Assembly: GCA_964418595.1 (NCBI GenBank)
Contig: CAYQMF010000003.1
Span: 28,630 to 92,629, forward strand
DNA: 64,000 nucleotides
Direction of reading: 5' to 3'
Origin: an uncultured candidatus Brocadiaceae bacterium
GTDB lineage: Bacteria; Planctomycetota; UBA1135; UBA2386
Made by a program: the position numbers and the translations under genes. The notes under the pieces were generated by a model, which worked only from the letters and a program-made list of their open reading frames with translations, ran no database searches and was not told the DNA's origin. This document shows positions 5,585-34,503 of this stretch, piece after piece (positions within the stretch are counted from its first letter, which is position 1; each line of letters starts with the position of its first letter).

Positions 5585-5594
5585 CGCGCACGGT

Positions 5595-5909: not shown

Positions 5910-5983
5910 CGCGGGCTATTGTCCGCGCCGGCGTGATCCGTGCCACGATCACACCGGCCACATCACCGAGACCCGCCATCGCG

Positions 5984-6478
5984 ATGGAGACCTGGTCGAT
6001 CCGCATCCACAAGGACTACCTGAAGTTCAGCGCCGCGCACTTCCTCATCTTCCCGGACGGCACGGCGGAGCGGTTGCACGGTCACAACTACAAGGTGTTC
6101 GTGGAACTGCACGGGCCGCTGGACCCGCACGGGCTCGTGATGAACTTCAAGGAGATCAAGCCGCTGATCCGCGAGCTGGTCGACGAACTCGACGAGCACC
6201 TGCTCATCCCGGGCAAGCATCCGGTGCTGCGGTGCACCAACGGCGACGCGGGCGCCGAGATCGTCTATCGGGAGCGACGCTACCTGGTCCCACGGGACGA
6301 GGTTCGCGTGCTGCCGATCTCGAACACGAGCGCCGAGAACCTCGCCTCCTGGGTCTCGAGCGAGATCCGGATGCGCCTGCTCGCCCGCTTCCCGCACATG
6401 GTCGTGCACGCGCTCGACGTCGGTGTGGAGGAGACGCCCGGCCAGTGCGGGACCCACCACTGGCGCATCGAGCGGTAG
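5984..6478 (+). CDS. 6-pyruvoyl-tetrahydropterin synthase / QueD family (COG0720) protein, non-canonical
   Basis: FSAAHF...ERLHGHNY matches the Zn-binding His triad of PTPS/QueD. The Cys four residues before the HGH is replaced (AERLHGH). The ATG at 5984 is in frame with track ORF 5933..6478. Confidence 0.8.
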   Translation: METWSIRIHKDYLKFSAAHFLIFPDGTAERLHGHNYKVFVELHGPLDPHGLVMNFKEIKPLIRELVDELDEHLLIPGKHPVLRCTNGDAGAEIVYRERRYLVPRDEVRVLPISNTSAENLASWVSSEIRMRLLARFPHMVVHALDVGVEETPGQCGTHHWRIER

Positions 6479-6482
6479 CGAT

Positions 6483-15653: not shown

Positions 15654-15731
15654 TCGGCCGAGCGTGGCCCTGGGCAACCCGGCGGGGCTCCGGTACCCTG
15701 CCGCCCTCCCCGCCGCCCCGCCGCGCTCGCC

Positions 15732-20368: not shown

Positions 20369-20369
20369 C

Positions 20370-23300
20370 TCAGTCGATGTAGAGGAACTCGTTGAGGTTG
20401 AGCGCCACGAGGCACAGGTCGGTGAGCGCCGCGGCCTGGTCGCCGTCGTGTCGGGCGGTCTGCGCCGAGAGGAACGCCGCCGCGCGCGCCCGTTCCCGCT
20501 CATCCGGGCTGCGCTGCAGGGTGATCCGGAACAACTGCTCGATGGCGTCACCGTCGCCGAGGCGCCGCGCGAGATGCCCGGCCTGGTTGCGCATGAAGGC
20601 ATCGTTGAGCATCGCCAGCGCCTGCAGCGGCGTCGTCGTCTCCATGCGCCGGCCGCAGCTCGCGGTGGCATCCGGCGCGTCGAACACCTCGAGCATGGGG
20701 AAGCGCACCGACCGCCGCATGAACACGTACAGGCTGCGTCGCCACGTGTCCGGGCCGTCCTTGGCGTCCTGGTCCCACTTCTTCGTGCTGCCGGTGGCGA
20801 TCGCGTCGGGGTGCATGCGCGGCATGACGCTGCGCCCACCGACGGTGGGGTTGAGGCAGGCGCTGGCCACGAGCACCGCATCGCGGATCGACTCGGCATC
20901 GAGGCGCATCACTTCGCGCCGGTGCCAGAGACGGTTGCTCGGATCCTCGGCCGCGTCCGCACGGTGCGCACTGGCCTGCCGATAGAGGGCGCTGGTGACG
21001 ATCAACCGATGGATGGGCTTGGTTCGCCAGCCGCCGGCGATCAGGCGCTGCGCCAGCCACTCGAGCAGCTCCTGGTGCGTCGGCGCATCGCCCTGGATGC
21101 CGAAATCGTTGGGCGTGCCCACGAGACCGCGGCCCATGTGCTGCTGCCAGATGCGGTTGACGATGACGCGGGCCAGCAGGCTGCCGGCGCCGTGCTCCAC
21201 GTCGGTGAGCCAGCGCGCCAGCGCCGCGCGACGGCCGGTGGTCTCCGCCTTGGCGGGGGGCTCCGCGTAGAACGCCGCCTGCGCGGCGCGCGGCGTGAGC
21301 ACCTGGAGGAACCCGGGCTCCAGCTCCTCGCGCTTGTCGTTCGGATCGCCGCGGCCGAGCAGGAAGGCCTTCGCCGGCGCGCTGCCGCGGTCGGTCATGA
21401 TCAGTGCCGTCGGCACCTCGGGCTTGTCGCGGTGCGGCACGGCCAGCGCCCGCATCTCGGCGCGTTCGTCCTCGGTGAGCGCGGCGCGCGCGAAGCGGTC
21501 CGAGATCGCGAGCGTGTCCGCGTGCGCAGCGAGGAGGGCATCGCGTTGCGTCGTGATCGCGGCGCGCAGCGTCGACTCCGCCAGCGCCGTCCGCGCGACC
21601 GGCACCACGTCGAGCAACTGGGCGCCGACCGTCTGCCGGCAGTGCACGGCGAGGAGGTTGGGGCCCTGCCGCAGCGCGGCGCGCCCGGCCGGCGTCGGAG
21701 TCAGGACCACGTAGTCGGTCGTGTAGCCCTGTCCCTGCGCGGCGAGCACGCCGTTGACGAACACCTCGACGTCCTCGTCGTGGTAGGCGACGAAGGTCAA
21801 CGCCGCTGGATCGCCTTCCCACTGGAACGAGCGTCGGGCCCAGACGTCGGGCCCGGTCCACGGCGTTGCGATCCGCACGTCGTCACGCCCGGCGCCGAAC
21901 GGAGCTTCGCCCTCCGGCCAGCCCGCGTCATCGAACGTCGGCGTCATCCACGTCTCGTCGGGCCGCGAGAACGTGAATCGCCACCGGCGCGCCGGGTCGA
22001 ACTCGCTCGCCAGCAGCGCGCAGGATGCGGCGTCGAGACCGAGCGCCTGCGCGCGCTGGGCGCGCACGCGCGCGCGACCGCGCGCCAGCACCGCGTCGCG
22101 CTGCGCGCGCAGCGTCTTCTCGTCCGCGTCCCGTTGGCGCTTGTCCTCTTCCCGGGCGGCCACGGTCGCCGCGTCGGCGAGCGGGTACACCACGCGCTGG
22201 CTGGTGCTGAACGCCGCCACCAGCCGGTAGTAGTCGCGCGTCGGGATGGGATCGAACTTGTGGTCGTGGCAGCGCGCGCAACCCACCGTGAGTCCGAGGA
22301 ACGCCGAGCCGAGCGTGCTCACCACGTCGTCGTACTCGTCGTAGCGCGTCTGCTCGTTCTCCTGGTTGTCGACGGTCGGGCCGGCGCACAGGAACCCCGT
22401 CGCACGCCACGCGCGCGGGTCGTCGGGCCGGAGTTCGTCGGCCGCCACCTGCAGGCGGACGAACTCGTCGAAGGGCAGGTCAGCGTGGAAGGCCTCGATC
22501 ACGAAGTCGCGGTACGGCCATGCCTGCGGCCGCTCGTGGTCGAACTCGTACCCGCCGCTGTCGGCGTAGCGGGCGACGTCGAGCCACCAGCGCGCCTGCC
22601 GCTCGGCGAAGTGCGGCCCGGCCATCAGGTCGTCGACCAGCCGCGCGAAGGGGTCGGGCCCCGGGGTCGCGACGTACGCCGCGAACTGCTCCGGCGTCGG
22701 TGGCAGCCCGATCAGCGTGTGGTAGGCACGCCGCACCAGCGTGCGTGCGTCGGCCTCCGGGCTCGGCGCGATCCCGGCCGCGTCGAGGCGCGCGATCCAG
22801 AAGCGGTCGAGGTCGTTGCGTGCGCGTTCCGGTGCGGTGATCGCAGGTGGGACCGGCTCCCCGAGCGGCACGAACGACCAGAACGCGCGGTCGGCGTCGG
22901 TCACCTGCATCTCGCCAGCCGCGCCCTTGGCCTTCGCCTCGGGCGGCACGACCAGCGAGCGCGGGTACGGGGCGCCCGCTTCGATCCACGCGCGCAGCGC
23001 GGCGCGCTCCGCGGCCACGAGCTGCGCCTTGCGCAGCGGCATGAACGGCTTGCGCGCGTGCTCGACCACGGCCAGCAGGAGGCTCGTGTCGGGATCGCCG
23101 GGGACGACTGCCGGCCCCTTGCTCCCGCCCTGCAGCAAGGTCGCGCGCTCGGTCAGGTCGAGGTCGGACTTGCGCCGCGCCGGGTTGTGGCAGGCGACGC
23201 AGTGCTGCTCGAGGATCGCCAGCGGATCCTGGGCGGGGAGCAGCGCACCGAAGCCGACGGCGAGGTGGAGAAAGCGACGCATGGTCTGCGCGCAGACCAT
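20370..23300 (-). CDS. PSCyt1/PSCyt2/PSD (DUF1549-DUF1553, planctomycete cytochrome c) protein with an inserted jelly-roll sugar-binding-like module
   Basis: N-terminal CVACHNP heme motif after a signal peptide, and RCHDHKFDP (DUF1549/1553 hallmark). The alternative start is the ATG at 23282 (MRRFLHL...). Confidence 0.9.
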   Translation of the reverse strand: MVCAQTMRRFLHLAVGFGALLPAQDPLAILEQHCVACHNPARRKSDLDLTERATLLQGGSKGPAVVPGDPDTSLLLAVVEHARKPFMPLRKAQLVAAERAALRAWIEAGAPYPRSLVVPPEAKAKGAAGEMQVTDADRAFWSFVPLGEPVPPAITAPERARNDLDRFWIARLDAAGIAPSPEADARTLVRRAYHTLIGLPPTPEQFAAYVATPGPDPFARLVDDLMAGPHFAERQARWWLDVARYADSGGYEFDHERPQAWPYRDFVIEAFHADLPFDEFVRLQVAADELRPDDPRAWRATGFLCAGPTVDNQENEQTRYDEYDDVVSTLGSAFLGLTVGCARCHDHKFDPIPTRDYYRLVAAFSTSQRVVYPLADAATVAAREEDKRQRDADEKTLRAQRDAVLARGRARVRAQRAQALGLDAASCALLASEFDPARRWRFTFSRPDETWMTPTFDDAGWPEGEAPFGAGRDDVRIATPWTGPDVWARRSFQWEGDPAALTFVAYHDEDVEVFVNGVLAAQGQGYTTDYVVLTPTPAGRAALRQGPNLLAVHCRQTVGAQLLDVVPVARTALAESTLRAAITTQRDALLAAHADTLAISDRFARAALTEDERAEMRALAVPHRDKPEVPTALIMTDRGSAPAKAFLLGRGDPNDKREELEPGFLQVLTPRAAQAAFYAEPPAKAETTGRRAALARWLTDVEHGAGSLLARVIVNRIWQQHMGRGLVGTPNDFGIQGDAPTHQELLEWLAQRLIAGGWRTKPIHRLIVTSALYRQASAHRADAAEDPSNRLWHRREVMRLDAESIRDAVLVASACLNPTVGGRSVMPRMHPDAIATGSTKKWDQDAKDGPDTWRRSLYVFMRRSVRFPMLEVFDAPDATASCGRRMETTTPLQALAMLNDAFMRNQAGHLARRLGDGDAIEQLFRITLQRSPDERERARAAAFLSAQTARHDGDQAAALTDLCLVALNLNEFLYID

Positions 23301-23337
23301 ACCGGGTGATCGCGACGGTGTCCGTCAGCCGGTCGAC

Positions 23338-24387
23338 TCACCAGCGCAACAAGAGCAGCTCCGTGCAGAAGCCGGGTCCCATGGCGAGCATCACGCCGTA
23401 CGCCCCGGGCGGCGGCGGCGCGGCCAACGTGTCGGCGAGGATGAGGAGCACCGACGCGCTCGACAGGTTTCCGACACCGGCGAGGTTGCGCCAGCTCGCC
23501 TGCACGGCATCGGCATCGAGGTCCAGCGCCGCCTGCAGGGCCTCGAGGACCTTGGGGCCGCCGGGGTGACAGATCCACCGCGCGATGTCGGTTCGTGCCA
23601 GCCCCTGCGCGCGAAGGAACGCGTCGACGTCGCCGCCGAGGCGCTCGCGCGCGATCGTCGGCACGGCGGGGGAGAGCACGATGCTGAAGCCGTGCTCGCC
23701 GATCCGCCAGCCCATCGCATCCTCCGTGTCTGGATAGAACACCGAGCGCGTGGCCAGGACACGGGGCCCGGCGGCTGCCGGGTGGTCGGCGCCGACGACG
23801 ATGGCGGCGCACGCACCATCGCCGAAGAGACCCGTCGAGATGATGTTGGCGACGGAGAGGTCGTTCCGCTGCAGGGTCAGCGAGCAGAGTTCGATCGTGA
23901 GCACGACCGCGGCGTGGCCGGGGAACGCACGCACGTAGTCGGCGGCGCGGGCCACGGCGGCGGCACCCGCGACGCAGCCCAGGCCGAACATCGGCGTGCG
24001 CTTGATGTCCGGGCGGAACCCGAGCCGATTCACCAGCCGGGCGTCGATGGACGGGCTGGCCAGCCCGGTGACGGTCGAGAAGAAGATCGCATCGACGTCA
24101 CGCGCGCGGAGCCCCGCGGTTGCGAGCGCATCGCCAACCGCCTGCTCCCCCAGATCGGTGGCGGCCGCGATCCATGCGTCGTTGCAGCGCGTGAAGGTCG
24201 TGAGGTCGTCGTAGGCCTCGATCGGCAGGGCCAGGTGGCGGCCTTGCACTTGCACGCTCGCGTGCAGGCGATCGATGCGACTCGCCATCTGCGGCTCGTG
24301 CGTCCAGACCTTGCGCAGGTACGCGGTGAGGGTCGCCTGCGGGTAGTAGTGCCGAGGCAGGGCGCGGCGGGCGGATGCGATTCTCAT
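23338..24387 (-). CDS. type III polyketide synthase (chalcone/stilbene synthase superfamily; alkylresorcinol/alkylpyrone synthase-like)
   Basis: Catalytic triad contexts MFGLGCVAG (Cys), WICHPGGPKVL (His) and GVGNLSSASVL (Asn). 349 aa from the internal ATG at 24387, which overlaps the upstream stop (ATGA). Confidence 0.95.
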   Translation of the reverse strand: MRIASARRALPRHYYPQATLTAYLRKVWTHEPQMASRIDRLHASVQVQGRHLALPIEAYDDLTTFTRCNDAWIAAATDLGEQAVGDALATAGLRARDVDAIFFSTVTGLASPSIDARLVNRLGFRPDIKRTPMFGLGCVAGAAAVARAADYVRAFPGHAAVVLTIELCSLTLQRNDLSVANIISTGLFGDGACAAIVVGADHPAAAGPRVLATRSVFYPDTEDAMGWRIGEHGFSIVLSPAVPTIARERLGGDVDAFLRAQGLARTDIARWICHPGGPKVLEALQAALDLDADAVQASWRNLAGVGNLSSASVLLILADTLAAPPPPGAYGVMLAMGPGFCTELLLLRW

Positions 24388-25118
24388 GAGCGTCGGGGCA
24401 GGGTGGGCAGGAAGTACGCGGTGCGCGCGCGATACGCGAGGAACGCCTCGCCGTACCGGGTCAGGTAGCGACGCTCCTTGAGCAGCGGGCCCAGCACACA
24501 GTAGAGCGTCCAACCGACGGCGAGGATGAATCGATCCAGGGTCCAGGTGGGCGCGGTCCACAGCACGAGGGCGAAGGCCAGGTAGATCGGTTGCCGGCAC
24601 ATGGTGAACGTCCCGCGCTGGGCGAAGCTCGGGTACCGCGGGGTCCGGCCGCGGAACACGGCGGCCCAGCCGACGAAGCCGGTCTGCACGCCCATGCCGC
24701 CGTCGAAGATCGCCTTGACCAGGAACAGCCACGCGAGCGCGAAGGCCGCGGCGTGCACGACGAGCCAGGCCCCATCGGGTCGCCACAGGACCGGCCCCAG
24801 CGGTGACCAGACCCAGAACGTCACCAGCAACTGGAGCGAGGCGACCGTCGCGTAGCTGGTGGTGACGAGGTGTCGGCCGTGCGGCGCGGGGAACAGCCGG
24901 GCCAGCAGGCGGCCGCCCCCGCGGCCGAGCAGCGCCGAGTGCAGCAAGGGGAAGGCGGCGACGAGGGCGAGGTCGGCCGCGAGCGCGGCTGCGCCGTGCA
25001 GGACCCCGCGCCCGAGCGCGAGTCCGGTCCACAGCGCCGCCGCCATGCTGGCGATGGCGGCCGCGAACAGCGCGTGGTTCAGGACGCCGAAGGCCAGCGC
25101 CAGCCAGCGCACTCTCAT
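24384..25118 (-). CDS. isoprenylcysteine carboxyl methyltransferase (ICMT)-family membrane methyltransferase (SrsB/BpsB-like)
   Basis: 244-aa polytopic membrane protein with a C-terminal RQPIYLAF...GPLLKERRYLTRYGEAFLAYR signature. GAAGGAGG lies 4 nt before the ATG at 25118. It overlaps the PKS start. Confidence 0.8.
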   Translation of the reverse strand: MRVRWLALAFGVLNHALFAAAIASMAAALWTGLALGRGVLHGAAALAADLALVAAFPLLHSALLGRGGGRLLARLFPAPHGRHLVTTSYATVASLQLLVTFWVWSPLGPVLWRPDGAWLVVHAAAFALAWLFLVKAIFDGGMGVQTGFVGWAAVFRGRTPRYPSFAQRGTFTMCRQPIYLAFALVLWTAPTWTLDRFILAVGWTLYCVLGPLLKERRYLTRYGEAFLAYRARTAYFLPTLPRRS

Positions 25119-25837
25119 GCCGCCTCCTTCACGAACAGGCCCGCGTAGGCGATGGCGAGGCTGCTGCTTCGACGCAGATGGATCGCGCCGGTGCGCAGGG
25201 TTGCCACGAACCTGGGCGCTTCGCCCTCGAGGTGCGCGCAGCGCAGCCGGTGCTGCGCGGCGACCGCGCACAGTTCCGCAGGCGTGACGAAGAGAGCGGG
25301 ATCGTGCGTGCCGCGGGGCACGAGCCCGACACCCTCCGCCAGCCGCACCGCGAGCCAACGCGCCCGCCACGTGCGGTTGATCGTGTTCACATACAGCCGG
25401 CCACCGGGGCGGAGCAGGCGCGCCGCGGTGGCGATTGCCGCGGGCCACGTCGGCAGGTGTTCCAACACGTCGGCCAGCAACACGAGATCGAAGGCCCCGT
25501 CCGGCAACGGACACGCGTGGAGATCGGCACACACGAACTGCGCCGTCGTGCTCGCGTGCGGCGCAGCGGCGCGCAGACTGCCGCGGCTGACGTCCACGCC
25601 GACGACCCTGGCCCCGGCGCGCGCGAGCGGAATCGCGAGGAGGCCGCCGCCGCAACCGAGATCGGCGACATCGGCGCCGACGAGCGATGCGCCCACGTGC
25701 GCACGCAGCCAGCGCAACCGGTGGTCGGTGATGGCGCGCAGCGAGGCGAACGTCTTGTCCGTCGCGTCCCACCAGCCTGCCGCGTGCCGCTCGTAGATCG
25801 ACAGGTCGTTGCGCGGTGCGACGTGATGTGACGCCAT
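25115..25837 (-). CDS. class I SAM-dependent methyltransferase (UbiG-like O-methyltransferase)
   Basis: Motif I VADLGCGGGLLAIPLA, plus DLVLLADVLEHL and LLRPGGRLYVNTINRT. The stop overlaps the downstream start (ATGA). Confidence 0.85.
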   Translation of the reverse strand: MASHHVAPRNDLSIYERHAAGWWDATDKTFASLRAITDHRLRWLRAHVGASLVGADVADLGCGGGLLAIPLARAGARVVGVDVSRGSLRAAAPHASTTAQFVCADLHACPLPDGAFDLVLLADVLEHLPTWPAAIATAARLLRPGGRLYVNTINRTWRARWLAVRLAEGVGLVPRGTHDPALFVTPAELCAVAAQHRLRCAHLEGEAPRFVATLRTGAIHLRRSSSLAIAYAGLFVKEAA

Positions 25838-25842
25838 GGCGC

Positions 25843-26265
25843 TCAATCGCCCACCCGCCGGAACACGATCTGGCCGTCGTCCGTGCTCATGCGGACGTGC
25901 CCCGGCGCCGCCGCAAGGCTCGCGGGCTCGGCGTCGACGCCCAGCGTGATCCTGCCGTCCGCGATCCGGTACTCGCCGGCCAGCGTCTGGAAGGTCGGCA
26001 GGCCGTTCTCGAGCACCAGCGCCGCCCCGGTGAAGCGACCGCCCGTCGCGAAGTGGTAGTAGACCTTCCACATCGCGTGCGCGATGGCACCGTCGATCTG
26101 CACCGACTCGTACAGCCCCTCCAGCGTCGCGGGCACCGGCGCGTCGAAGGTCAGCCTCGCCGGCGCGGCGGCGATCGCGCGATCCTCGGCGGCCACGACG
26201 TTGGAGGGGATGCACCCCGACGGCAGCGCCGCCGCCAGGAGTGTCAGCGCGCGTAGGTTCCTCAT
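25843..26265 (-). CDS. small hypothetical lipoprotein
   Basis: Signal sequence MRNLRALTLLAAALPSGC with an imperfect lipobox. The ATGA overlaps the upstream gene, and there is a 5-nt gap to the downstream gene. Confidence 0.6.
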   Translation of the reverse strand: MRNLRALTLLAAALPSGCIPSNVVAAEDRAIAAAPARLTFDAPVPATLEGLYESVQIDGAIAHAMWKVYYHFATGGRFTGAALVLENGLPTFQTLAGEYRIADGRITLGVDAEPASLAAAPGHVRMSTDDGQIVFRRVGD

Positions 26266-27371
26266 CGGCCCGCTTCCGTGGCTTCGCCCAGCGAGCGTGC
26301 CTGCAGCGCGATCCAGATCTTCACCTCGGGCTGCATGCTGATCACGCCGAGCTGGCTCGGCACCGGCACGCCGTAGTCGGGGAGCGAGATCGTCGCCTCA
26401 CCCTCGGCGTGCACGCGCTGGCTCTCGTCCACGCGCAGGCGCACGGGCATGGCCACGGCGCGCGTCTGTCCGCGGATGGTCAGCTTGCCGCGGACCGTGC
26501 CCTGTGTCGTCCTTGCGTCCGCGTCGACCTTCGCGTCGCCCATCGCCTCGACGACGAACGCGATCTCCCTGTGGTCGGTGGTGGCGAGATGCTGGCGCAT
26601 CGCCTCGTTGCGGCCGGCGAGACCCGTGTCGAGTGCGTCGGCCTGGACGCGGATCGCGCCGGTGCACGCCGCCTCCGGGTCGGCGAGATCGAGCGTGACG
26701 GTGCCCGTCAGGGAGGACGTGACGCCGGTGAAGTCGTGCAGCGTGCTCTTCGCATCGAATCCGACGCGCGAGAGGCTCGGCAGGATCTCGAGGCGTTGCC
26801 GGCCGGCGAAGCGGAAGGACTCCGAGGGCAGGGTGAAGGCGAACGCCGAGCGTCGTCGTGGCGGCGCCACCGGCGTCGCGGCCACCGGTTGCGAGGGCGG
26901 CGTGACGATGATGTCGATGGCGGGGTCGGCCACACCTTGCGGCGCGGTGACAGGAGGGGCGACGGGAGGTGTCGCGGTGAGGCGGGTCGCGGACTCGGCG
27001 ATGGCGTCGCGGATCGCGCGTTGACCGCTCGCGAGTGCAGCTACCTCCCTGGCCAGCGCGGCTTGCGCGCCGTGTGCCTGGGCGAGATCGCGGGCGATGG
27101 CTTCGGCGCGCGTCGTCGCTCCCTCTTCCATGGTGTCGGTCACGTGCTGGATCCCCGCAGTCAGCGCCGCGGCGAGAGCGCGGACGTCGCGCTGGATCTG
27201 GCCGATCTCGTCGCGGAGCTGTGCCGTCGCCTGCAGCGCGGGATCCTGGGCGAGGTCCGGCGACACGACGACGCGGACCCGATCGTGCAAGACGGCGAGC
27301 CCGGCTGCGGTGCCGCCCGCGAGCGTCAGCAGCGCGAGGAGGCCGAACCACGCGAGCAGAGTCTTTCGCAT
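26262..27371 (-). CDS. membrane-anchored coiled-coil / Pro-rich linker / YceI-like domain protein
   Basis: N-terminal TM segment (LLAWFGLLALLTLAGG), then about 110 aa of heptad-like Ala/Gln/Arg-rich sequence and a PPVAPPVTAP linker. The C-terminal YceI-like region has VGFDAKSTLHDFTG, GKLTIRGQTRAV and a terminal beta strand KIWIALQA. Confidence 0.75.
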   Translation of the reverse strand: MRKTLLAWFGLLALLTLAGGTAAGLAVLHDRVRVVVSPDLAQDPALQATAQLRDEIGQIQRDVRALAAALTAGIQHVTDTMEEGATTRAEAIARDLAQAHGAQAALAREVAALASGQRAIRDAIAESATRLTATPPVAPPVTAPQGVADPAIDIIVTPPSQPVAATPVAPPRRRSAFAFTLPSESFRFAGRQRLEILPSLSRVGFDAKSTLHDFTGVTSSLTGTVTLDLADPEAACTGAIRVQADALDTGLAGRNEAMRQHLATTDHREIAFVVEAMGDAKVDADARTTQGTVRGKLTIRGQTRAVAMPVRLRVDESQRVHAEGEATISLPDYGVPVPSQLGVISMQPEVKIWIALQARSLGEATEAGR

Positions 27372-27403
27372 CCTGCGCCCCTGGCAAACCCGATGCCGGT
27401 CCG

Positions 27404-27418
27404 GCAGTGCCCGTGCCG
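27404..27418 (-). promoter_or_regulatory. candidate sigma-54 (-24/-12) promoter for the YceI-lipoprotein-MT-MT-PKS operon
   Basis: The minus strand reads CGGCACG-GGCA-CTGC against the consensus TGGCACG-N4-TTGC, with correct GG-N10-GC spacing. The predicted +1 is about 21 nt upstream of the ATG at 27371. Confidence 0.4.
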
Positions 27419-27460
27419 TGCGGCGCGGCAGGCGCATGGCGCCGGGCCGGCTGGTAGGAC

Positions 27461-27486
27461 TTGCACGACCTTTGCAGATCCTGCAA
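27461..27486. promoter_or_regulatory. three phased YTGCA motifs (candidate activator binding site / UAS)
   Basis: TTGCAC-gacc-TTTGCAG-atcc-CTGCAA. The TGCA cores at 27462, 27473 and 27482 are 11 and 9 bp apart and lie between the two sigma-54-like motifs. Confidence 0.3.
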
Positions 27487-27550
27487 CGAGCCGGCCCCGC
27501 TCGACCCGGCGCGCCGCGGCCGCACGCGGCCGAGCTGGCGCGCGGCGGGC

Positions 27551-27566
27551 CGGCACGGCGCGTGCT
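27551..27566 (+). promoter_or_regulatory. candidate sigma-54 (-24/-12) promoter for the MMPL-flavoprotein-YceI-kinase operon
   Basis: CGGCACG-GCGC-GTGCT with correct GG-N10-GC spacing. The predicted +1 (about 27577) is only 2 nt before the ATG at 27579, so the mRNA would be leaderless. This is a weakness of the call. Confidence 0.35.
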
Positions 27567-27578
27567 TGGCGCCGGGCG

Positions 27579-29540
27579 ATGCTGTTCCCCTCCACGCGTC
27601 GCGGGGCCTGGCTGCTGCTGCTGGCGTTGGGCGTGCCGACTGCGTGGCTCGCCCACGTGCAGGCGGGCACGCCCATCGACCCTCGCAACCGGGCGATGAA
27701 GTCGGCGACAGGAGCCGACGCTGCCGCGATCGCGCGCCGGGTCGCCTTGTTCGGTGACGATCGTGCCTTGCTCGCGGGCTTCCACCCTCGCTCGCCGGAC
27801 CTCACGTTCGCGCCCGCCGACGCCGAGCTGCTTGCGCGGCTGGCCCGCACGGTGGGCGGGGTCGACGGTGTGCATCGCGTGGAGCAGATCCCGGCTCCGA
27901 CCGCCAGCGAGCGCCTGTGGCTGATCCACCTGGCCGCGGCCAACGGCGGCGCGGGCGACGAACTCGTCGTCGCGACCGTCGAGGGCAAGCTGCGCGAAGG
28001 TTGCCCCACTCACCTCGCCGTCGACTTCACGGGCCTGCCGGCCGTCGAGGCCGCGATCGCCGCGGCGGTCACCACGGAGCAGCGCCAGATCGTGCCGGCG
28101 ATCGCCGGTGCGCTCTTCGTCCTGCTCGCGGTTCTCTTCCGCAGCGTCGGTGCCGCCGTCGCGGCCATGCTCCCGGCCGGGATCGCGATCGCATGCGCTG
28201 GCGGGGTCTTCGCGCTGACCGGGCACCGGCTCGATCCCGTCGCCGGGCTGTTGCAGCCCGTGCTGCTCACGGTCGGCGTCGCGTACTCGGTGCACGTCGT
28301 CGAGGGGTGTCGTGCGCGCGCCGCCCGCATGGGTCCGGGGCAAGCCGTGCGTCGCACGGTGCGGGATCTCCTCGAACCGAGTCTCCTCGCGACGGGGACG
28401 ACCGTGCTCGGCCTGATCGTCAACGCGCTGAGTCCCATCCCTTCCGTCGTCGACTTCGCGGTGTACGCGGGCTTCGGCGTGGCGGTCGGGATGGCCGCCG
28501 TGTTCTGGGTCTCGCCGGCCGTCCTGCTCGCCTGGCCGGGTGCGCTCGCCGCTCGGCCCCGCGGTAGCCCGACGCGGGCGCGGGGCCTGACTGGGTTTTC
28601 GCGGCGACACGCCGCCAGCATCCTCACCGGCAGCGTGTTGAGCCTGGGCTTCGCCGTCGATGCGTGCCTGCGCCTGACGGTGGACAACGACCCGTTGCGC
28701 ATCCTGCCGGCTGCGCACGGGCTGCGCGTGGAGACGGAACGGCTCGCCGGTCGGCTCGGCGGGGTGGAGCCCTTCGATGTCCTGGTGCCGGCGGGAAGCG
28801 CGCTGATGGAGCCTGCGGCGTTGCGGATGCTCGCCGCGGATCTCGGCAGCCGCGCGGGCGTGGTCGGCCTCGCCGGGCCACCGATCCAGGCCGCCACCGG
28901 CGACGTCCTCCTCCGCGCCATCCTGCCGCGCGCCGGCAGCACGGAGCGCGGCCGGGTCTTCGACGACTTCGAGCGCAGCCTGCGTTGCGCAGGGCATCCG
29001 GAGGTCCTGGTCACTGGCTCGGCGGTGCAGGTCGCGCGCGACTCCAATCGCCTCGTCGCCGGCCAGATCGGCAGCCTGGCGATCACGCTGGTCGTGCTGT
29101 TCGTGGCGATGCTGTTCGGCCTCCGCTCGTTCCGCCTGAGCTGCATCGGGCTGGCGCCGAGTGTCCTGACCAGCCTCGTCGTGTACGGGACGCTCGGCGC
29201 GCTGCATCGGCCGCTCTCGGTCGCCACCGCGCTGATCGGGTCGGTGATGCTGGGGCTGATCGTCGACACGACGATCCACCTGCTCGTGCGCTTCCGGCGC
29301 GCCCGCGCGCACGGGGCGACGCGCGCGGCAGCGGTGGCGAGCGCGCTGGCCCGCGCCGGGCGTGCGGTCGTGTTGACCAGTCTCGTCCTCGGCACCGGCT
29401 TCTCCGTGGCCGGGTTCGGGCGGTTGTCGACCACGGCCGAGTTCGGCCTCCTGGCCGCGCTGACGATCGGCGTTGCCGCGGTGGTCTCGCTCCTGCTCGT
29501 GCCCGCGCTGCTGCTCGTGCGCGAAGGAGGCCGGCGATGA
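27579..29540 (+). CDS. MMPL / RND-superfamily membrane exporter
   Basis: 653 aa from the internal ATG, in frame with track ORF 26241..29540. Topology is TM1, a periplasmic domain, a 5-TM bundle, a second periplasmic domain and a 5-TM bundle, as in MMPL/HpnN-type lipid exporters. Confidence 0.8.
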   Translation: MLFPSTRRGAWLLLLALGVPTAWLAHVQAGTPIDPRNRAMKSATGADAAAIARRVALFGDDRALLAGFHPRSPDLTFAPADAELLARLARTVGGVDGVHRVEQIPAPTASERLWLIHLAAANGGAGDELVVATVEGKLREGCPTHLAVDFTGLPAVEAAIAAAVTTEQRQIVPAIAGALFVLLAVLFRSVGAAVAAMLPAGIAIACAGGVFALTGHRLDPVAGLLQPVLLTVGVAYSVHVVEGCRARAARMGPGQAVRRTVRDLLEPSLLATGTTVLGLIVNALSPIPSVVDFAVYAGFGVAVGMAAVFWVSPAVLLAWPGALAARPRGSPTRARGLTGFSRRHAASILTGSVLSLGFAVDACLRLTVDNDPLRILPAAHGLRVETERLAGRLGGVEPFDVLVPAGSALMEPAALRMLAADLGSRAGVVGLAGPPIQAATGDVLLRAILPRAGSTERGRVFDDFERSLRCAGHPEVLVTGSAVQVARDSNRLVAGQIGSLAITLVVLFVAMLFGLRSFRLSCIGLAPSVLTSLVVYGTLGALHRPLSVATALIGSVMLGLIVDTTIHLLVRFRRARAHGATRAAAVASALARAGRAVVLTSLVLGTGFSVAGFGRLSTTAEFGLLAALTIGVAAVVSLLLVPALLLVREGGRR

Positions 29541-30772
29541 GCGGTGCCCGTGCAGACGTCGACGTGGCCATCGTCGGTGGCGGACCCGCCGGCGCGTCGC
29601 TGGCGATGCGGCTCGGGCGGGCCGGCCTGCAGGTGCTCGTGCTCGAGAAGAAGCGGTTCCCGCGCTTCAAGCCGTGCGGCGAGTTCATGAGTCCGGAGTG
29701 CCTGCCGATCCTCGCCGGCCTCGGGGTGGGGGAAGACGTCGCCGCGCTGGGCGTGCGGCGCGTGGGCGGCATGGAGTTGCATGGCTACGAGCGGCGGGCC
29801 GAAGGTCACTTCGCGCCCGTGGGGGAGACGCCGGCGCCGGCGCCCTTCGGCTGGGCTGTCCGGCGGGAGCGGTTCGACGCCGTGCTGCTCGCCGCGGCCG
29901 CGGCGACCGACGGCGTGACGGTGGCGGAGCGGGCGACCGTCGATGGGCTCGTGCGCGATGCGCGCGGCGTGGTGCGGGGTGTCGTAGTGCGCGAAGGCGA
30001 GGGCCAGCGCGAGGTGCGCGCGCGCTGCGTGATCGGCGCCGATGGCGTTCGTTCGCGCGTTGCGCGGGATCTCGGGGTGCAGCGCCCGGTGCCCTGGCTG
30101 CAGCGCGTCGCGTTGACGACGCGCTACGCGGGCGTCACGCCGCGTGCGTGCGCCGAGGTACACCTGTTCCCCGGTGGGTACTTCGCCGCGACCCCGGTCG
30201 ACGATGGTCTCTTCAGCCTCAACCTCGTGCTCGATCGGGCGGCGGTGCGGGCGCACGACGGGGACTGGGACGCCTTCCTCCGCCGGCACCTGGCTGCCGC
30301 GCCTCTGCTCCGCGATCGGCTCGCCGACGCCGTGCGCGTCGATCCGGTGCGCGGCTGCGGTCCGCTCGCGATGTCGACGACGCGGCAGGTGGCCGACGGC
30401 GCCGCGCTGGTCGGCGACGCGTGCGGGTACGTCGACCCGATCACCGGCGAGGGCGTGTTCTTCGCCCTGCGCGGTGCGCAGCTGCTGGCGCCGATCCTGG
30501 TGGACGCGCTGGCCGGCGGTCGCGCCGACCGGCGCTCGCTGCGCGCCTACGCGCACGCCCGCCGCGCCGAGTTCGGGCCGCGCCTGATGTTCGCGCGGCT
30601 CCTGCAGCGCGGCCTGCGCCATCCGTGGCTCGTGGCCGGCGCGCTGTCGCTACTGGCGGCCCGGCCACGCCTCGCCGACCTCCTGGTGGCGATCACCGGC
30701 GACTACGTACCGGGCCGTGAGCTGTTGCGGCCGGCGGTGTGGTGGCGCGCGCTGCGGGGAGTACCGGCATGA
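29537..30772 (+). CDS. FAD-dependent oxidoreductase, geranylgeranyl reductase / aromatic hydroxylase-like family
   Basis: DVAIVGGGPAGASLAMRL (GxGxxG), GADGVRSRVARDLG and LVGDACGYVDPITGEG. The ATG overlaps the MMPL stop (ATGA). Confidence 0.85.
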   Translation: MSGARADVDVAIVGGGPAGASLAMRLGRAGLQVLVLEKKRFPRFKPCGEFMSPECLPILAGLGVGEDVAALGVRRVGGMELHGYERRAEGHFAPVGETPAPAPFGWAVRRERFDAVLLAAAAATDGVTVAERATVDGLVRDARGVVRGVVVREGEGQREVRARCVIGADGVRSRVARDLGVQRPVPWLQRVALTTRYAGVTPRACAEVHLFPGGYFAATPVDDGLFSLNLVLDRAAVRAHDGDWDAFLRRHLAAAPLLRDRLADAVRVDPVRGCGPLAMSTTRQVADGAALVGDACGYVDPITGEGVFFALRGAQLLAPILVDALAGGRADRRSLRAYAHARRAEFGPRLMFARLLQRGLRHPWLVAGALSLLAARPRLADLLVAITGDYVPGRELLRPAVWWRALRGVPA

Positions 30773-31446
30773 GCGAGCGTCGCGTGGCAGCGCTCGCGCT
30801 GTTGCCCGCCTTCGTCATGACCGCGGTGCTCGTGCTCCACGAGATCCGGCGGCCTGGCCTCGAGCCGGTCGCTGGTTCGCAGGCTCCGACGATCACGTTG
30901 CCGCGACTCCCGGTACCGCGGCTTCGGAGCGGGACGTACGTCGCGTACGATGGCCGGCTGGCCATCTCCGTGCAGGATGCCTTCGACGAACAGATCGTGG
31001 TCGACGACGCGGTGACCATCACGCTGGACCTGGGTGCCGACCGGCGCCCGACGGCGGTCGACATCGCCGTCGACCTCCTGCCGTTTTGCGCGGGGGCCTC
31101 CGACCCCTGGCAGGGCGAGGCGGTGTACGCGCTCCTCGATGCGGGTGCGTTGCGGCAGGCGCGCTTCCTCAGTGAGTCCATCACGACGTCGACGACGACT
31201 GTCGACGGTGTGGATCGCCTGCGCTGCCTCGGCAACCTGACCCTGCACGGCGAGGTGCGGCGCACGATCCTCGATCTGTGTCTCGGCGCCGAGCGCAAGG
31301 ACCGGGCGCGGATGGTGGGGGATCTGGATCTCGATACGCGCGCGTTCGGTCTGCCGGCGAGCTGGCGCTTCGGCGTGGTGCGGCTCGACCCGATCGTGCA
31401 CGTCCGTCTCGACGCCGCCCTCACGCAGCGGCGGAAGGACGACTGA
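30769..31446 (+). CDS. hypothetical membrane-anchored protein, weakly YceI-like
   Basis: N-terminal TM segment (VAALALLPAFVMTAVLVL). The C-terminal GNLTLHGEVRRT...FGLPASWRFGVVRLDPIVHVRLDA resembles the YceI C-terminal strands. The ATGA overlaps the upstream gene, and the stop directly abuts the next start. Confidence 0.5.
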   Translation: MSERRVAALALLPAFVMTAVLVLHEIRRPGLEPVAGSQAPTITLPRLPVPRLRSGTYVAYDGRLAISVQDAFDEQIVVDDAVTITLDLGADRRPTAVDIAVDLLPFCAGASDPWQGEAVYALLDAGALRQARFLSESITTSTTTVDGVDRLRCLGNLTLHGEVRRTILDLCLGAERKDRARMVGDLDLDTRAFGLPASWRFGVVRLDPIVHVRLDAALTQRRKDD

Positions 31447-33003
31447 GTGGCCGGTTCCGACCGCGTCACCCGCCAGGATCGCCGCCTGTCCATCGCCGGA
31501 CAGATGCGGTGGATCGTTGTCATCCTGCTCGCCCTCGTCCTCGGGATGCTCGGCATCGTCGTCGTCGAGGTGCACGGCATCCGGGTCGATCTGCGCCGCG
31601 TCGCAGAGGAGAGACGCGAGGCCGAACTCGCCCAGGCGCTCGTGCTCGACGTCCGCGGCTTCCAGCGGGTGGTCCGGCTGCGCGCCACGAGCGACGTCCC
31701 GGCCGACGCGACGCTGGGAGCACGCGATCAGGTCGGGCACATCGAGGAGGCGATCGCGACCCTCGATCGACTGTCGGCGCCCTCGCAGGACGATCCGTCG
31801 GAGCGTTCGCACGAGGCGGCAGAGACGAGGACGCGCGCGGAGCTGCGGGATCTGCTGCAGCGGGCGCGCATCGCCACCGCGACCGGAGAGGTGAGCGCGC
31901 CGGAGTGGGCGGAGCACGCGGCCACGATGTGTCGCATCGCCGAGTCGCTGGCGATGGAGATCGGCCGTGAAGCGCACGCCGCCAGCCTCGACCTGGATGC
32001 CCGCGGTGGCAGCCTCATGCGCCTCGTGGGCCTGCTCGCGATCGGCGCGGTCTCGCTCCTGATCGCCATCTGCCTGTATGTGCAGCGGCGTGTCGTGCAG
32101 CCGTTGCGCGAGTTGCGCGAGGGCGCGCGGCATATCGGACGCGGTCGCCTGGACCATCCCCTGGCCGAAGTCGGCGGCGCCGAGATCGTCGACCTCGGGC
32201 GTGAGATCAAGGCGATGGCGCGCCAGCTCGCGAGCCACAACGAGGACCTGGCGGCGCGCGTCGAGCAGCGCACGCGTGAACTGATCCGGACTGCGCGGTT
32301 CGCGGACCTCGGCGCGCTAGCGGCGGGGCTGGCGCACGAGATCAACACGCCGCTGGCGTCGATCAGCGCCTGTGCCGAAGGTCTGCTGCGCCGCGGCGCC
32401 AAGAGCCGGCGGCTCGACGACGCGGAGCGCGAATACCTGGAGACCATCGGCCAGGAGGCGGAGCGCGTGCACGAGATCGCGGCGCGCCTGCTCGAGATCG
32501 GCCGCAGCGACTCGCCGGCGCTTGGGCCGGTGGATGTCGCCGCGGCGATTCGCGCGGCGGTGACCCTGTCGCGGCACCGATTCGAAGGGGCGTCGGTGCG
32601 CCTGGTCGCGGAGATCCAGTCCGAGCTGCCGGAGATCGTGAGCAACCCGCAAGAACTGCGGCAGGTGTTGCTCAACCTGCTGAACAACGCCCTCGACGTG
32701 AGCTCGCCGGGCAAGCGCGTGCGGGTGTGCGCCGAGCGGATCGGTTCCGAGGTCGTCGTCGATGTCGACGACGAAGGGCCGGGCGTGCCGCCAGATCTCG
32801 TCGACCGGGTCTTCGAGCCGTTCTTCACGACCAAGGCGGTGGGGCAGGGAACCGGCCTCGGCCTGGCGATCGTGCAGCGCATCGTGGAGCGGCACGGCGG
32901 CCACATCGAGATCGTGGATCGCAAGCCCGGCGCGCGCTTCCGCGTTCGCTTCGCCGTGGCGGAGGACGATCAGTCGGCGCGGTCGACGGCCAGCCGGTTG
33001 TAG
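31447..33003 (+). CDS. sensor histidine kinase (2 TM, periplasmic helical sensor, HAMP, HisKA, HATPase)
   Basis: H-box LAAGLAHEINTPLASI, N-box LLNLLNNALD, and G-boxes DDEGPGVP and GTGLGLAIV. GTG start at 31447. Confidence 0.85.
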   Translation: MAGSDRVTRQDRRLSIAGQMRWIVVILLALVLGMLGIVVVEVHGIRVDLRRVAEERREAELAQALVLDVRGFQRVVRLRATSDVPADATLGARDQVGHIEEAIATLDRLSAPSQDDPSERSHEAAETRTRAELRDLLQRARIATATGEVSAPEWAEHAATMCRIAESLAMEIGREAHAASLDLDARGGSLMRLVGLLAIGAVSLLIAICLYVQRRVVQPLRELREGARHIGRGRLDHPLAEVGGAEIVDLGREIKAMARQLASHNEDLAARVEQRTRELIRTARFADLGALAAGLAHEINTPLASISACAEGLLRRGAKSRRLDDAEREYLETIGQEAERVHEIAARLLEIGRSDSPALGPVDVAAAIRAAVTLSRHRFEGASVRLVAEIQSELPEIVSNPQELRQVLLNLLNNALDVSSPGKRVRVCAERIGSEVVVDVDDEGPGVPPDLVDRVFEPFFTTKAVGQGTGLGLAIVQRIVERHGGHIEIVDRKPGARFRVRFAVAEDDQSARSTASRL

Positions 33004-34313
33004 AGCGTCTTCAGCGAGATCCCCACCGCCTCCGCTACGCGCTTCTTGTCGCCGTCGAAGCGCTCCATCGCCGCCTGGATCGCCAGGCGTTCGAGCTCGG
33101 CGGCGTTCAACGTGGGGAGTTCCTGGCGGCCGGCGCGGGCGCGGGCCAGGACGAACGTGTCGACGTGCTCGGCCTCGATGCGGTCACTGCCGACCATCGT
33201 GGCGAGGCGGGTGATGGCGTTCTGCAGCTCGCGCACGTTGCCCGGCCACGCATGGCCCTGCAGGCGAGCCAGCGCCGCCGGGGTCAGGACCATGGCGCGT
33301 CCCTGCCGGTGCGCGCAGCGCTCGAGGAACCTCGTCGCGAGCAGCGGGATGTCGGCGCTGCGGTCGCGCAACGCCGGCACCGCGAGTTCGAGCGTGGCGA
33401 GGCGGTAGTAGAGGTCTTCGCGGAAGGCGCCCTCGCGCATGAGCACGTGCAGGTCGCGGTTGGTCGCGCAGACCACGCGCACGTCGACGGTGCGCGTGCG
33501 GTCGTCGCCGACCGGTCGGATCTCGCCGAACTGAACCGCCCGCAGCAGTGCCGGCTGCAACTCGCGGGGCAGGTCGCCGATCTCGTCGAGGAACAGCGTG
33601 CCCCGGTGCGCGGCCTCGAACAGGCCGACCCGGGCCCGATCCGCCCCGGTGAACGCGCCCTTGGCGTGACCGAAGAGTTCGCTGTGCACGAGGTTGTCGG
33701 CGATCGCGCCGCAGTTCACCACCACGAAGCTCTCGTCGCATCGCGGGCTCATCGCGTGCACGGCGCGCGCGATCAGCTCCTTGCCCGTACCGTTCTCACC
33801 GAGGATGAGGACGCTGTCGTCGCTGGCGGCGACACGTGCGAGGCTGGTGCGCAGCTCGCGCATGCCGACGCTCTCGCCGACGATGTCGGGGTCTACCGTC
33901 GCTGAGTTGGCGCGACGCAGCCGCGCGTTCTCCTCGCCGAGGCGGCGGTGTTCGCAGGCGCGGCGCAGGGTCTGCTCGAGGATCGCGGTCCGCGTCGGCT
34001 TCTGCAGGAAGTCGTACGCGCCGCCCTGCATGGCGCGGACGGCGTCGGCGACGCTGCCGTGGCCGGTCAGCACCACGACGGGGACTGCGGGCTCGGCACC
34101 GTGCAGCGTCGCCAGCGCCTGATGGCCGTCGACGCCCGGCATCTTCAGGTCGAGCAGCACCACGTCCGGTCGATCGGCGAGCACGCGCGCCACGAGATCG
34201 CGGGCATCGGCGGCGGTGGTGACCGAGAAGCCCAGGTCGGTCAGCTCCCGCGACAGCACCCGGCGCAGCGTGGCATCGTCGTCGACGACCAGGACCTTGG
34301 GGTCAGGCGGCAC
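32970..34313 (-). CDS. sigma-54-dependent response regulator (NtrC family bacterial enhancer-binding protein)
   Basis: Receiver (VLVVDDD...LLDLKMPG...KP), AAA+ Walker A GENGTGKE, GAFTGA loop, Walker B LFLDEIG, and a C-terminal HTH. The GTG at 34313 is my choice and is uncertain. The 3' end overlaps the kinase gene by 34 nt. Confidence 0.9.
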   Translation of the reverse strand: MPPDPKVLVVDDDATLRRVLSRELTDLGFSVTTAADARDLVARVLADRPDVVLLDLKMPGVDGHQALATLHGAEPAVPVVVLTGHGSVADAVRAMQGGAYDFLQKPTRTAILEQTLRRACEHRRLGEENARLRRANSATVDPDIVGESVGMRELRTSLARVAASDDSVLILGENGTGKELIARAVHAMSPRCDESFVVVNCGAIADNLVHSELFGHAKGAFTGADRARVGLFEAAHRGTLFLDEIGDLPRELQPALLRAVQFGEIRPVGDDRTRTVDVRVVCATNRDLHVLMREGAFREDLYYRLATLELAVPALRDRSADIPLLATRFLERCAHRQGRAMVLTPAALARLQGHAWPGNVRELQNAITRLATMVGSDRIEAEHVDTFVLARARAGRQELPTLNAAELERLAIQAAMERFDGDKKRVAEAVGISLKTLYNRLAVDRAD

Positions 34314-34503
34314 GGGCGCGATCGTCGGCCAACCACTCGGCGCGGACAAGCGTCGCCATGCAACCTCGATCGACGACGTCAGGGGTCCGCGTCGGTCGGT
34401 GTCCGGACCCCGGGCGAGGAAACCGATGCGAGACGTGCGCCCCGCGCACATGAGTGTCGCCAAGTCCTTGCGCCCGGTGACGGCAGCGGTACCCACTTCC
34501 CGC

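Follow-up and report, generated by a model that had tools for sequence, protein, structure and literature searches.

Gene Content and Organization of the Locus

This analysis concerns a gene cluster built around a type III polyketide synthase (PKS) in an uncultured candidatus Brocadiaceae bacterium, and its possible role in the making and export of a phenolic lipid. The window, that is, the whole stretch of DNA analyzed, comprised 64,000 nucleotides of contig CAYQMF010000003.1 (assembly GCA_964418595.1). The cluster occupied window positions 23338-34313 and consisted of ten genes: five on the minus strand, four divergent genes on the plus strand, and a convergent gene for an NtrC-type activator. 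Genes were called from a codon-position GC plot together with the translations of the window; raw lists of open reading frames (ORF) were noisy at 72% GC. Domains were called with Pfam and NCBIfam models scored against their cutoffs. The ten genes were as follows.

23338-24387, minus strand: type III PKS (Pfam Chal_sti_synt_N/C; PKS11-like)
24384-25118, minus strand: membrane methyltransferase (MT) candidate of the ICMT/PEMT/MddA superfamily, divergent and with weak matches
25115-25837, minus strand: UbiG-like soluble class-I S-adenosylmethionine (SAM) MT (TIGR01983)
25843-26265, minus strand: small lipoprotein with lipobox Cys18 and a lipocalin-like predicted model
26262-27371, minus strand: transmembrane (TM) anchor, spacer and YceI domain (Pfam YceI PF04264)
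27579-29540, plus strand: MmpL-type transporter of the resistance-nodulation-division (RND) superfamily (Pfam MMPL; AlphaFold2 model)
29537-30772, plus strand: FAD flavoprotein (FAD_binding_3)
30769-31446, plus strand: second YceI-like protein, YceI2 (sub-cutoff Pfam match; profile-profile alignment)
31447-33003, plus strand: sensor histidine kinase (HK; HAMP/HisKA/HATPase_c)
32970-34313, minus strand: NtrC-type activator with a GTG start (Response_reg/Sigma54_activat/HTH_8)

The minus-strand genes were joined by ATGA overlaps at 24384-7, 25115-8 and 26262-5 and by a 5-nt gap at 25838-42. The plus-strand genes were joined by ATGA overlaps at 29537-40 and 30769-72 and by direct abutment at 31446/31447, and the activator gene overlapped the 3' end of the HK gene convergently by 34 nt. 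A first-pass annotation of this DNA had described the same five-gene minus-strand chain, the divergent plus-strand chain from 27579 to 33003 and the converging activator, and every ORF and junction of both chains was reproduced. Its count of 11 ORFs was one too many, as its own list holds ten genes.

Conservation of the Cluster in Related Loci

The divergent architecture was present in 11 independent loci from metagenomes or metagenome-assembled genomes (MAG), with PKS identities of 55-75%. These were L001/L005 (same MAG), L003/L004, L007, L008, L009, L010, L011, L012, L014, L015 and the window itself. The general layout was YceI–lipoprotein–(UbiG-like MT)–(membrane MT)–PKS, diverging from MmpL–flavoprotein–(YceI2)–HK, plus an NtrC-type activator, where parentheses denote optional genes.

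The neighborhood was approached from three queries: the PKS, the MMPL protein and the lipoprotein. Six PKS homologues at 62-74% identity were looked up, and the same cluster was found in four of them (L001, L003, L014 and L015); in the other two the PKS stood alone (L013) or lay in a different cluster, in a member of the Thermoanaerobaculia (L002). With the MMPL query, every context examined (L005-L011) was divergently arranged, and the lipoprotein query led to the same arrangement in L012.

Genes for YceI, the lipoprotein, PKS, MmpL, flavoprotein, HK and NtrC formed the core of the cluster. L008-L010 had no UbiG-like MT, L009 and L010 had no membrane MT either, and L010 also lacked YceI2. The HK was found in every related locus, and the NtrC gene was always within the cluster at a mobile position: convergent on the HK in the window, L005 and L011; co-directional after the HK in L006 and L008-L010; and beside the PKS in L003, L007, L012 and L014, as well as in L015, where its start overlapped the PKS stop codon. 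The first-pass annotation had assigned the PKS and its neighbors to one system. Co-conservation with the PKS across the 11 loci, reached by three query routes, agreed with that assignment for MMPL, YceI, lipoprotein, flavoprotein, HK and NtrC. For the methyltransferases and YceI2 the agreement extended to part of the loci only, as both MT and YceI2 were dispensable in some.

Several loci carried additional features. L006 (5330-14801, MAG SMAG_U1956), a variant with no PKS nearby that is taken up below, was also without YceI2 and had an NTP-transferase-like gene and an esterase after the MT. In L001 a 579-aa ORF without Pfam match (4847-6586) lay between the divergent operons and widened the intergenic region to 2.3 kb; sigma-54 motifs still adjoined each operon despite the intervening ORF. 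Downstream of the cluster PKS of L011 (1171-4020) there was a second, truncated type III PKS (249 aa), along with two genes (423 and 258 aa) without Pfam match. The PKS of the Thermoanaerobaculia MAG (L002, 10001-17422), 63% identical to that of the window, was part of a separate cluster without pump or YceI, which held an ICMT (PF04140), an 80-aa gene resembling acyl carrier proteins (ACP), an AMP-binding ligase, a homologous flavoprotein and a radical SAM enzyme.

Type III Polyketide Synthase

Both Pfam domains of type III PKS were matched well above their cutoffs of 27 bits each (PF00195, 74.1 bits; PF02797, 67.3 bits). The closest relative in the PDB was PKS11 of Mycobacterium tuberculosis (4jao; E = 1.9e-101, 343 bits, full length, 49% identity); CylI, which forms alkylresorcinols, came next (220 bits). 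The GLGCVAG, HPGG and GNLSSAS segments aligned with the catalytic Cys, His and Asn of PKS11, and the catalytic Cys column was the position mutated in the C138S entry 4jat. A FabH/KAS III identity was rejected, as FabH models scored 60-63 bits (cutoffs 249-292) compared with 343 bits for PKS11. The earlier call of a genuine type III PKS with an intact triad was confirmed in this way, and the placement with FabH that had been named as speaking against it was not seen.

Homologues called "alkylresorcinol/alkylpyrone synthase" numbered in the thousands. In a neighbor-joining tree (no bootstrap), most of the cluster PKS grouped with matches labelled Planctomycetes, and the PKS of Thermoanaerobaculia formed a separate tight group, beside which the PKS of L010 branched. 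The lone PKS of L013 (P0053) fell among the cluster PKS. By analogy to characterized relatives, the product of the window enzyme is inferred to be a 5-alkyl(methyl)resorcinol.

Putative Tailoring Enzymes

The soluble MT scored 130.6 bits with the UbiG model TIGR01983, above its equivalog cutoff (102.95), and also matched Methyltransf_11, Methyltransf_25 and Methyltransf_23, in agreement with the earlier assignment as a UbiG-like SAM methyltransferase. No ubi genes were seen near the cluster, and the protein is filed here as UbiG-like, not as UbiG.

The membrane MT had no Pfam match, and no PDB match was obtained with the single sequence. It matched the NCBIfam model for MddA with E = 1e-20, yet at 73.9 bits against a cutoff of 270. 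The best PDB match of its profile was ICMT 4a2n (E = 0.018), located on the C-terminal cofactor motif, and its orthologues gave weak matches to DUF1295, PEMT and NnrU. Hydropathy indicated at least 4 TM segments, and the motif read RQP where RHP was expected. Compared pairwise, it and the PF04140 protein found in L002 showed no similarity. The membership in the ICMT family that had been proposed before was weakly supported at the superfamily level (MddA, 4a2n, PEMT/DUF1295/NnrU), and the Pfam ICMT match was lacking.

The flavoprotein matched FAD_binding_3 in Pfam (E = 3e-31), the GG-red-SF model at 141 bits (below its cutoff of 158.8), and models for UbiH/UbiF/Coq6 hydroxylases (TIGR01988, E = 2.5e-32). 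Its five best sequence matches in the PDB were FADH2-dependent halogenases (CndH, E = 1e-31; 8zop; CmlS; ChlB4; Mpy16), and Pfam Trp_halogenase was matched with E = 3e-11. The catalytic K76 of CndH aligned with Arg, and the WxWxIP motif read GGYFAATP, with both Trp gone; the same was true of all orthologues. The motifs K-x-C-G-E and GDAxGYVDxxTGEG were invariant among the orthologues, as in the geranylgeranyl-reductase family, and were shared with the flavoprotein of L002 (34% identity). The FAD_binding_3 match and the Cys-Gly-Glu motif of geranylgeranyl reductases were consistent with the earlier placement in the geranylgeranyl-reductase/hydroxylase family. The protein is presumed from these similarities to be a ring hydroxylase of the geranylgeranyl-reductase/halogenase-like branch.

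MmpL-Type Transporter

The transporter had 653 aa, 12 TM segments and two small periplasmic domains, with hydropathy and the helices of the AlphaFold2 model in agreement. It matched Pfam MMPL (PF03176, 72.6 bits; cutoff 20.5), the Sterol-sensing model and TIGR00921 HAE3 (E = 2e-35); a phmmer search of the PDB with the single sequence gave no match. The predicted model (pLDDT 88, pTM 0.84) had MmpL4, MmpL5 and MmpL3 as its top Foldseek matches (E = 1e-22 to 1e-19, TM-score 0.75-0.82), followed by NCR1/NPC1 and HpnN, so the protein models as an MmpL3/4/5-like RND protein. The subfamily was rare (14 clusters), and a genome-wide scan with the MMPL alignment turned up at least 3 loci. The MMPL/RND family proposed earlier was upheld by the Pfam score and the predicted fold, and a role as exporter of the lipid is proposed from the genomic linkage.

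Three Predicted Barrel Proteins as Candidate Carriers

The first YceI protein scored above the Pfam cutoff (E = 1.4e-18, 68.2 bits; cutoff 23.7) over residues 196-357. It consisted of one TM segment (residues 10-28), an Ala/Gln/Arg-rich spacer, a Pro-rich linker and the C-terminal YceI domain. Among orthologues the YceI domain was strongly conserved and the spacer of about 170 residues varied in length. YceI2 remained below the same cutoff (E = 0.0035, 18.1 bits), but was aligned to the profile of the first YceI protein by hhalign with a probability of 93% (E = 2.5e-7, 136 columns across the YceI domain). It was fast-evolving, and its N-terminal anchor was one TM segment at residues 6-24. Of the two YceI-like proteins reported in the first-pass annotation, the first was established directly by its Pfam score, and the second was backed by the profile-profile comparison in place of a Pfam score above cutoff.

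The lipoprotein (140 residues, lipobox Cys18) matched nothing in Pfam or NCBIfam. A word-indexed search gave 33 homologues in its family and an exhaustive search with a profile gave 116 clusters (E ≤ 1e-10), none of them named. The AlphaFold2 model was an eight-stranded beta-barrel (pLDDT 86, core about 97), and its neighbors in the PDB by Foldseek were nearly all lipocalins or fatty-acid-binding proteins (E = 5e-3, probability 0.98-1.0, TM-score 0.45-0.5). Identity as a remote YceI was rejected (hhalign probability 0.3% against YceI profiles). The lipoprotein models as a lipocalin-like beta-barrel and is taken as a third carrier candidate, which brings the two lipocalin-like proteins counted earlier to three calycin-like ones. 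The N-terminal anchors and the lipobox suggest that the two YceI proteins and the lipoprotein are presumably three membrane-tethered barrels that face the periplasm.

Kinase, Activator and Sigma-54 Motifs

The HK had 2 TM segments, a periplasmic domain of about 150 aa, and HAMP, HisKA and HATPase_c domains (Pfam and hydropathy). The activator combined PF00072, PF00158 (Sigma54_activat, E = 2e-65, 220 bits) and PF02954 (HTH_8), with GAFTGA in the translation. The divergent intergenic region measured 207 bp and contained the following elements.

27551-27566, plus strand: sigma-54 -24/-12-like motif CGGCACGGCGCGTGCT, ending 12 nt before the MMPL start codon (score 10/12)
27383-27398, minus strand: sigma-54 -24/-12-like motif CGGCATCGGGTTTGCC, ending 11 nt before the YceI start codon
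27472-27486, unstranded: palindrome TTGCAG-N3-CTGCAA inside a conserved, AT-richer central element (GTAAGAgTTGCAC-like) between the two promoters

Only 3 sites as good as CGGCACGGCGCGTGCT occurred in the whole window on both strands. On the MMPL side, a site scoring at least 10/12 was found in 8 of 10 related loci (P = 0.002-0.017 per locus when compared with 120-nt segments drawn at random from that locus), and for at least 5 of these loci the distance from the end of the motif to the ATG was 12-13 nt. On the YceI side, 6 of 8 loci had a motif scoring at least 9 at 11-21 nt ahead of the gene; the window had a second candidate there at 27403-27418. The plus-strand candidate TGGCAAACCCGATGCC was discarded, as it was the reverse complement of the YceI-directed site.

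The motifs ended only 11-13 nt before the start codons, in the window as in at least five related loci, which implies that the first cistrons of both operons are predicted to be leaderless or nearly so. Internal genes, by contrast, carried Shine-Dalgarno sequences, such as AAGGAGG before 29537. The palindrome was also present in L009, and TTGCA-type words were enriched 3-10x over background in most intergenic regions (1-5 found against 0.2-0.9 expected), with none in L006. The palindrome is a candidate binding site of the activator. A k-mer search for a common activator site yielded nothing that stood out above the GC-rich background. The dedicated sigma-54 control that had been proposed for the locus gained support from the conserved -24/-12 motifs before both operons, and the regulation would be as these motifs predict.

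Flanking Genes and Host

The cluster was flanked by genes for DUF1501, PSCyt1/PSCyt2/PSD1, RsmB, a subtilase and an M20 peptidase. These are unrelated to it, and support both the cluster boundaries given above and a host resembling a member of the Planctomycetes-Verrucomicrobia-Chlamydiae (PVC) group. The gene pair for DUF1501 and PSCyt1/PSCyt2/PSD1 adjoined the PKS (18965-23324, minus strand), and the same pair was found near the cluster in L001; it is probably lineage synteny typical of Planctomycetota and not a part of the system. These neighbors, together with the source labels of homologues, agreed with the Planctomycetota-like host suggested in the first-pass annotation, and the cluster fits a Planctomycetota lineage represented by high-GC MAG, as judged from gene content and labels.

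Directly past the activator gene, the ORF at 34216-35703 (plus strand) carried a strong coding signal in its third-position GC, with about 400 aa that are truly coding; it had no Pfam match and was not beside the cluster in other loci. Farther away, 15654-18776 (plus strand) encoded an S9/DPP-IV-type peptidase with the long low-complexity inserts EQQQEQQ... and GTTQGTTQ...

Proposed Function and Alternatives

The cluster is interpreted as a self-contained unit that makes, tailors and exports an alkylresorcinol-derived phenolic lipid and regulates these steps (probability of roughly 0.6). This interpretation builds on homology, folds, topology, co-conservation and promoter motifs, and from these proposes a product, a cargo, a direction of transport and a mode of regulation. 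The type III PKS would use long-chain acyl-CoA and malonyl-CoA, possibly methylmalonyl-CoA, to form a 5-alkyl(methyl)resorcinol, the ring of which would be hydroxylated by the flavoprotein, as SrsC, PkqC and HidB do. After hydroxylation, the ICMT-superfamily membrane MT and the UbiG-like MT would O-methylate the intermediate to a methoxylated alkyl-hydroquinone or alkyl-quinone. The MmpL-type RND protein, driven by the proton-motive force, would lift the lipid from the cytoplasmic membrane, and the lipid would pass to the tethered periplasmic barrels (two YceI proteins and the lipocalin-like lipoprotein) and toward the outer layers. The HAMP kinase would sense an envelope or periplasmic signal and phosphorylate the NtrC-type activator, which would switch on the sigma-54 promoters of both divergent operons.

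The main argument that both operons act on the same molecule is that biosynthetic and transport genes are interleaved in both: the flavoprotein gene sits with the pump, and the PKS gene with the carriers. The presence of a flavoprotein homologue inside a canonical PKS and ICMT cluster (L002) also supports action on the same molecule.

A more specific proposal, held tentatively and at less than even odds, is that the cluster encodes an unrecognised periplasmic lipid route. An MmpL pump would feed a relay of three calycin-fold carriers that leads to the outer layers, and a dedicated sigma-54 two-component system would activate the route by way of leaderless transcripts. Of these carriers, the two YceI proteins would be anchored in the inner membrane, one by way of a long spacer, and the third would be a lipoprotein of a new lipocalin-like family.

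Several observations weigh against the phenolic-lipid cluster as proposed. Expression of the two MT of a similarly organized operon from 'Saltatorellus ferox' in Corynebacterium glutamicum gave no detectable change in the PKS products (Milke et al., 2024; PMC10896814). With its Cys-Gly-Glu motif, as in geranylgeranyl reductases, the flavoprotein may be a reductase and not a hydroxylase. The sigma-54 motifs are consensus matches in DNA of 72% GC, and those on the YceI side are individually weak (P = 0.01-0.05). The lipocalin assignment of the lipoprotein comes from a predicted model with weak Foldseek E-values (5e-3). The MT and YceI2 are absent in some relatives (L008-L010), so that the final product cannot be uniform. 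Finally, L006 keeps YceI, lipoprotein, membrane MT, MmpL, HK and NtrC without PKS, flavoprotein or UbiG-like MT nearby, which indicates that the transport module may not be strictly dedicated to the polyketide.

The product could instead be a polyketide quinone serving as redox carrier or antioxidant, as with PkqABC in Mycobacterium smegmatis and Streptomyces, and not a structural envelope lipid; this is considered unlikely. The PKS, a hydroxylase and two O-methyltransferases would then yield a ubiquinone-like methoxylated alkyl-benzoquinone, which the YceI proteins and MmpL would place at periplasmic or outer redox partners, with the kinase responding to redox state or oxygen. Much of the enzymology is consistent with such a quinone: PKS11 is the closest solved PKS, PkqABC/SrsABC have a comparable triad of PKS, membrane MT and flavoprotein, the second MT exceeds the UbiG equivalog cutoff, and the flavoprotein matches the UbiH/UbiF/Coq6 models (TIGR01988, E = 2.5e-32). 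In addition, PkQ operons are tightly regulated by conditions, and the S. ferox enzyme clusters with PKS that incorporate methylmalonyl-CoA (PMC10896814), which would provide a ring methyl as in ubiquinone. However, a membrane electron carrier has no obvious need of an RND exporter and three periplasmic carriers, L009 and L010 lack both MT while keeping pump, carriers and regulators, there are no respiratory genes in or beside the cluster, and no quinone is known to have been found in the lineage.

It is more doubtful still that the two operons are merely neighbors with separate jobs, the minus strand making a phenolic lipid, and MmpL, flavoprotein, YceI2 and HK/NtrC forming a general envelope-stress module for efflux or lipid homeostasis, possibly of isoprenoid or hopanoid-like lipids. 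The L006 variant, with MmpL, HK, NtrC, YceI, lipoprotein and membrane MT but without PKS or flavoprotein, speaks for separate jobs, and PKS homologues that fall within the same range of identity are also found by themselves (L013) or beside fatty acyl-AMP ligase (FAAL)/ACP genes without a pump (L002). The geranylgeranyl-reductase motifs of the flavoprotein point the same way, as do the YceI proteins, which are classical isoprenoid binders. Against this, the linkage is kept across 11 loci with MMPL identities down to 36-40%, despite NtrC rearrangements and gene losses, and the MMPL subfamily was not seen outside such clusters in the contexts looked up. The flavoprotein homologue lies inside a PKS and ICMT cluster elsewhere (L002), the carrier genes are divided between both operons, and both operons have the same promoter type.

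It is very improbable that the flavoprotein acts as a flavin-dependent halogenase to give a halogenated alkylresorcinol. A parallel would be DIF-1 of Dictyostelium (type III PKS, halogenase and O-methyltransferase), and halogenases are the five best PDB matches, with the Trp_halogenase match (E = 3e-11) besides. The Lys replaced by Arg and the missing WxWxIP in the window protein and all orthologues largely refute this reading, and the cluster has no flavin reductase gene.

In bacteria, operons of three genes are known to make alkylresorcinols and polyketide quinones. To our knowledge, there is no account of how such hydrophobic lipids exit the cytoplasmic membrane or of how their synthesis is controlled. 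For these processes the phenolic-lipid cluster offers a co-conserved list of candidate parts, namely an MmpL-type pump, three barrels, a kinase/activator pair and sigma-54 promoters. The candidates would be accessible in S. ferox, a cultivable and genetically approachable relative, provided that its genome has the divergent pump operon. YceI proteins are widespread, and the context of the cluster suggests a possible physiological cargo for them. The small lipocalin-like lipoprotein represents a new family of about 100 clusters at 50% identity without annotation. The flavoprotein, encoded in the other operon, was left out of the S. ferox co-expression, which may explain why two MT and the PKS gave no new products. 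If the proposed route is true, no earlier export pathway for lipids of the alkylresorcinol type would be known, and YceI proteins would gain their first defined set of cargo and partners. With functions that we infer, the cluster provides a testable hypothesis for the movement of bacterial phenolic lipids and the cargo of YceI.

Comparison with Known Systems

The closest published system is a pentacistronic operon of 'Saltatorellus ferox' Poly30 (Poly30_13900-13920 and two upstream genes; Milke et al., 2024; PMC10896814). Its genes encode a lipid/isoprenoid-binding protein, a lipoprotein, two MT and a type III PKS, and the PKS formed C15, C17 and C17:1 alkylresorcinols and methyl derivatives in C. 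glutamicum (PMC10896814). The S. ferox enzyme clusters with methylmalonyl-CoA-incorporating PKS, and other planctomycetal PKS with HidC (PMC10896814). The operon resembles the minus-strand chain of the window, with the same gene order, as compared by the published description only. The S. ferox report makes no mention of a divergent MmpL-flavoprotein-YceI2-HK operon, an activator or promoters, gives no fold for the lipoprotein, and leaves the roles of the MT open (PMC10896814). The literature searched contained nothing joining YceI with a type III polyketide synthase, and nothing linking alkylresorcinols with MmpL, YceI, RND transporters or sigma-54. The combined architecture had been taken as undescribed in the first-pass annotation. 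That view needs to be narrowed, as the five-gene operon and the PKS products are published (PMC10896814); it stands for the MmpL operon, the carriers as a system and the sigma-54 control, of which no description was found. The minus-strand half is already published; the half for transport and regulation appears to be new to the literature, as does the lipocalin-like lipoprotein family.

SrsABC of Streptomyces griseus, PkqABC of Mycobacterium smegmatis and Streptomyces sp. MNU77, and HidABC of Cyanobium each combine a type III PKS, a membrane MT and a FAD oxidoreductase. From a fatty acyl starter they form alkylresorcinol methyl ethers, alkylquinones/polyketide quinones or hierridins, and three-gene HidABC operons occur in 58 planctomycetes. 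The window cluster belongs to the same chemistry class, its PKS being 49% identical to PKS11, and its flavoprotein, a hydroxylase as predicted from sequence, is likewise linked to the PKS (11 loci). Whereas those operons are compact and hold three genes, the triad of the window is split over two divergent operons with seven more co-conserved genes. The membrane MT of the window is of another branch of the superfamily, without Pfam ICMT match, and the cluster adds a UbiG-like MT, an MmpL pump, three barrel candidates and a sigma-54 two-component system.

The transporter shares the RND fold and two small periplasmic domains with mycobacterial MmpL3 (trehalose monomycolate, TMM), MmpL4/5-MmpS4/5 and MmpL7 (phthiocerol dimycocerosate, PDIM) and with HpnN (hopanoids). 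Genes for MmpL7, MmpL8 and MmpL10 cluster with biosynthesis genes of a polyketide-derived lipid, as the transporter gene of the window does. In contrast to the mycobacterial proteins, the window transporter is shorter (653 aa) and has no C-terminal cytoplasmic or coiled-coil domain, its candidate partners are YceI and lipocalin-like barrels instead of MmpS, LprG or LpqN-type proteins, and its host is a diderm planctomycete.

Members of the YceI family (E. coli YceI, Thermus TT1927b, Helicobacter HP1286) have the eight-stranded lipocalin-like barrel of PF04264, with polyisoprenoid or fatty-amide ligands reported, and the family also binds isoprenoid quinones and polyprenyl chains. By contrast, in the YceI protein of the window an N-terminal anchor and a spacer of about 170 residues precede this domain, a divergent paralogue accompanies the protein, and its gene lies within a polyketide-lipid cluster.

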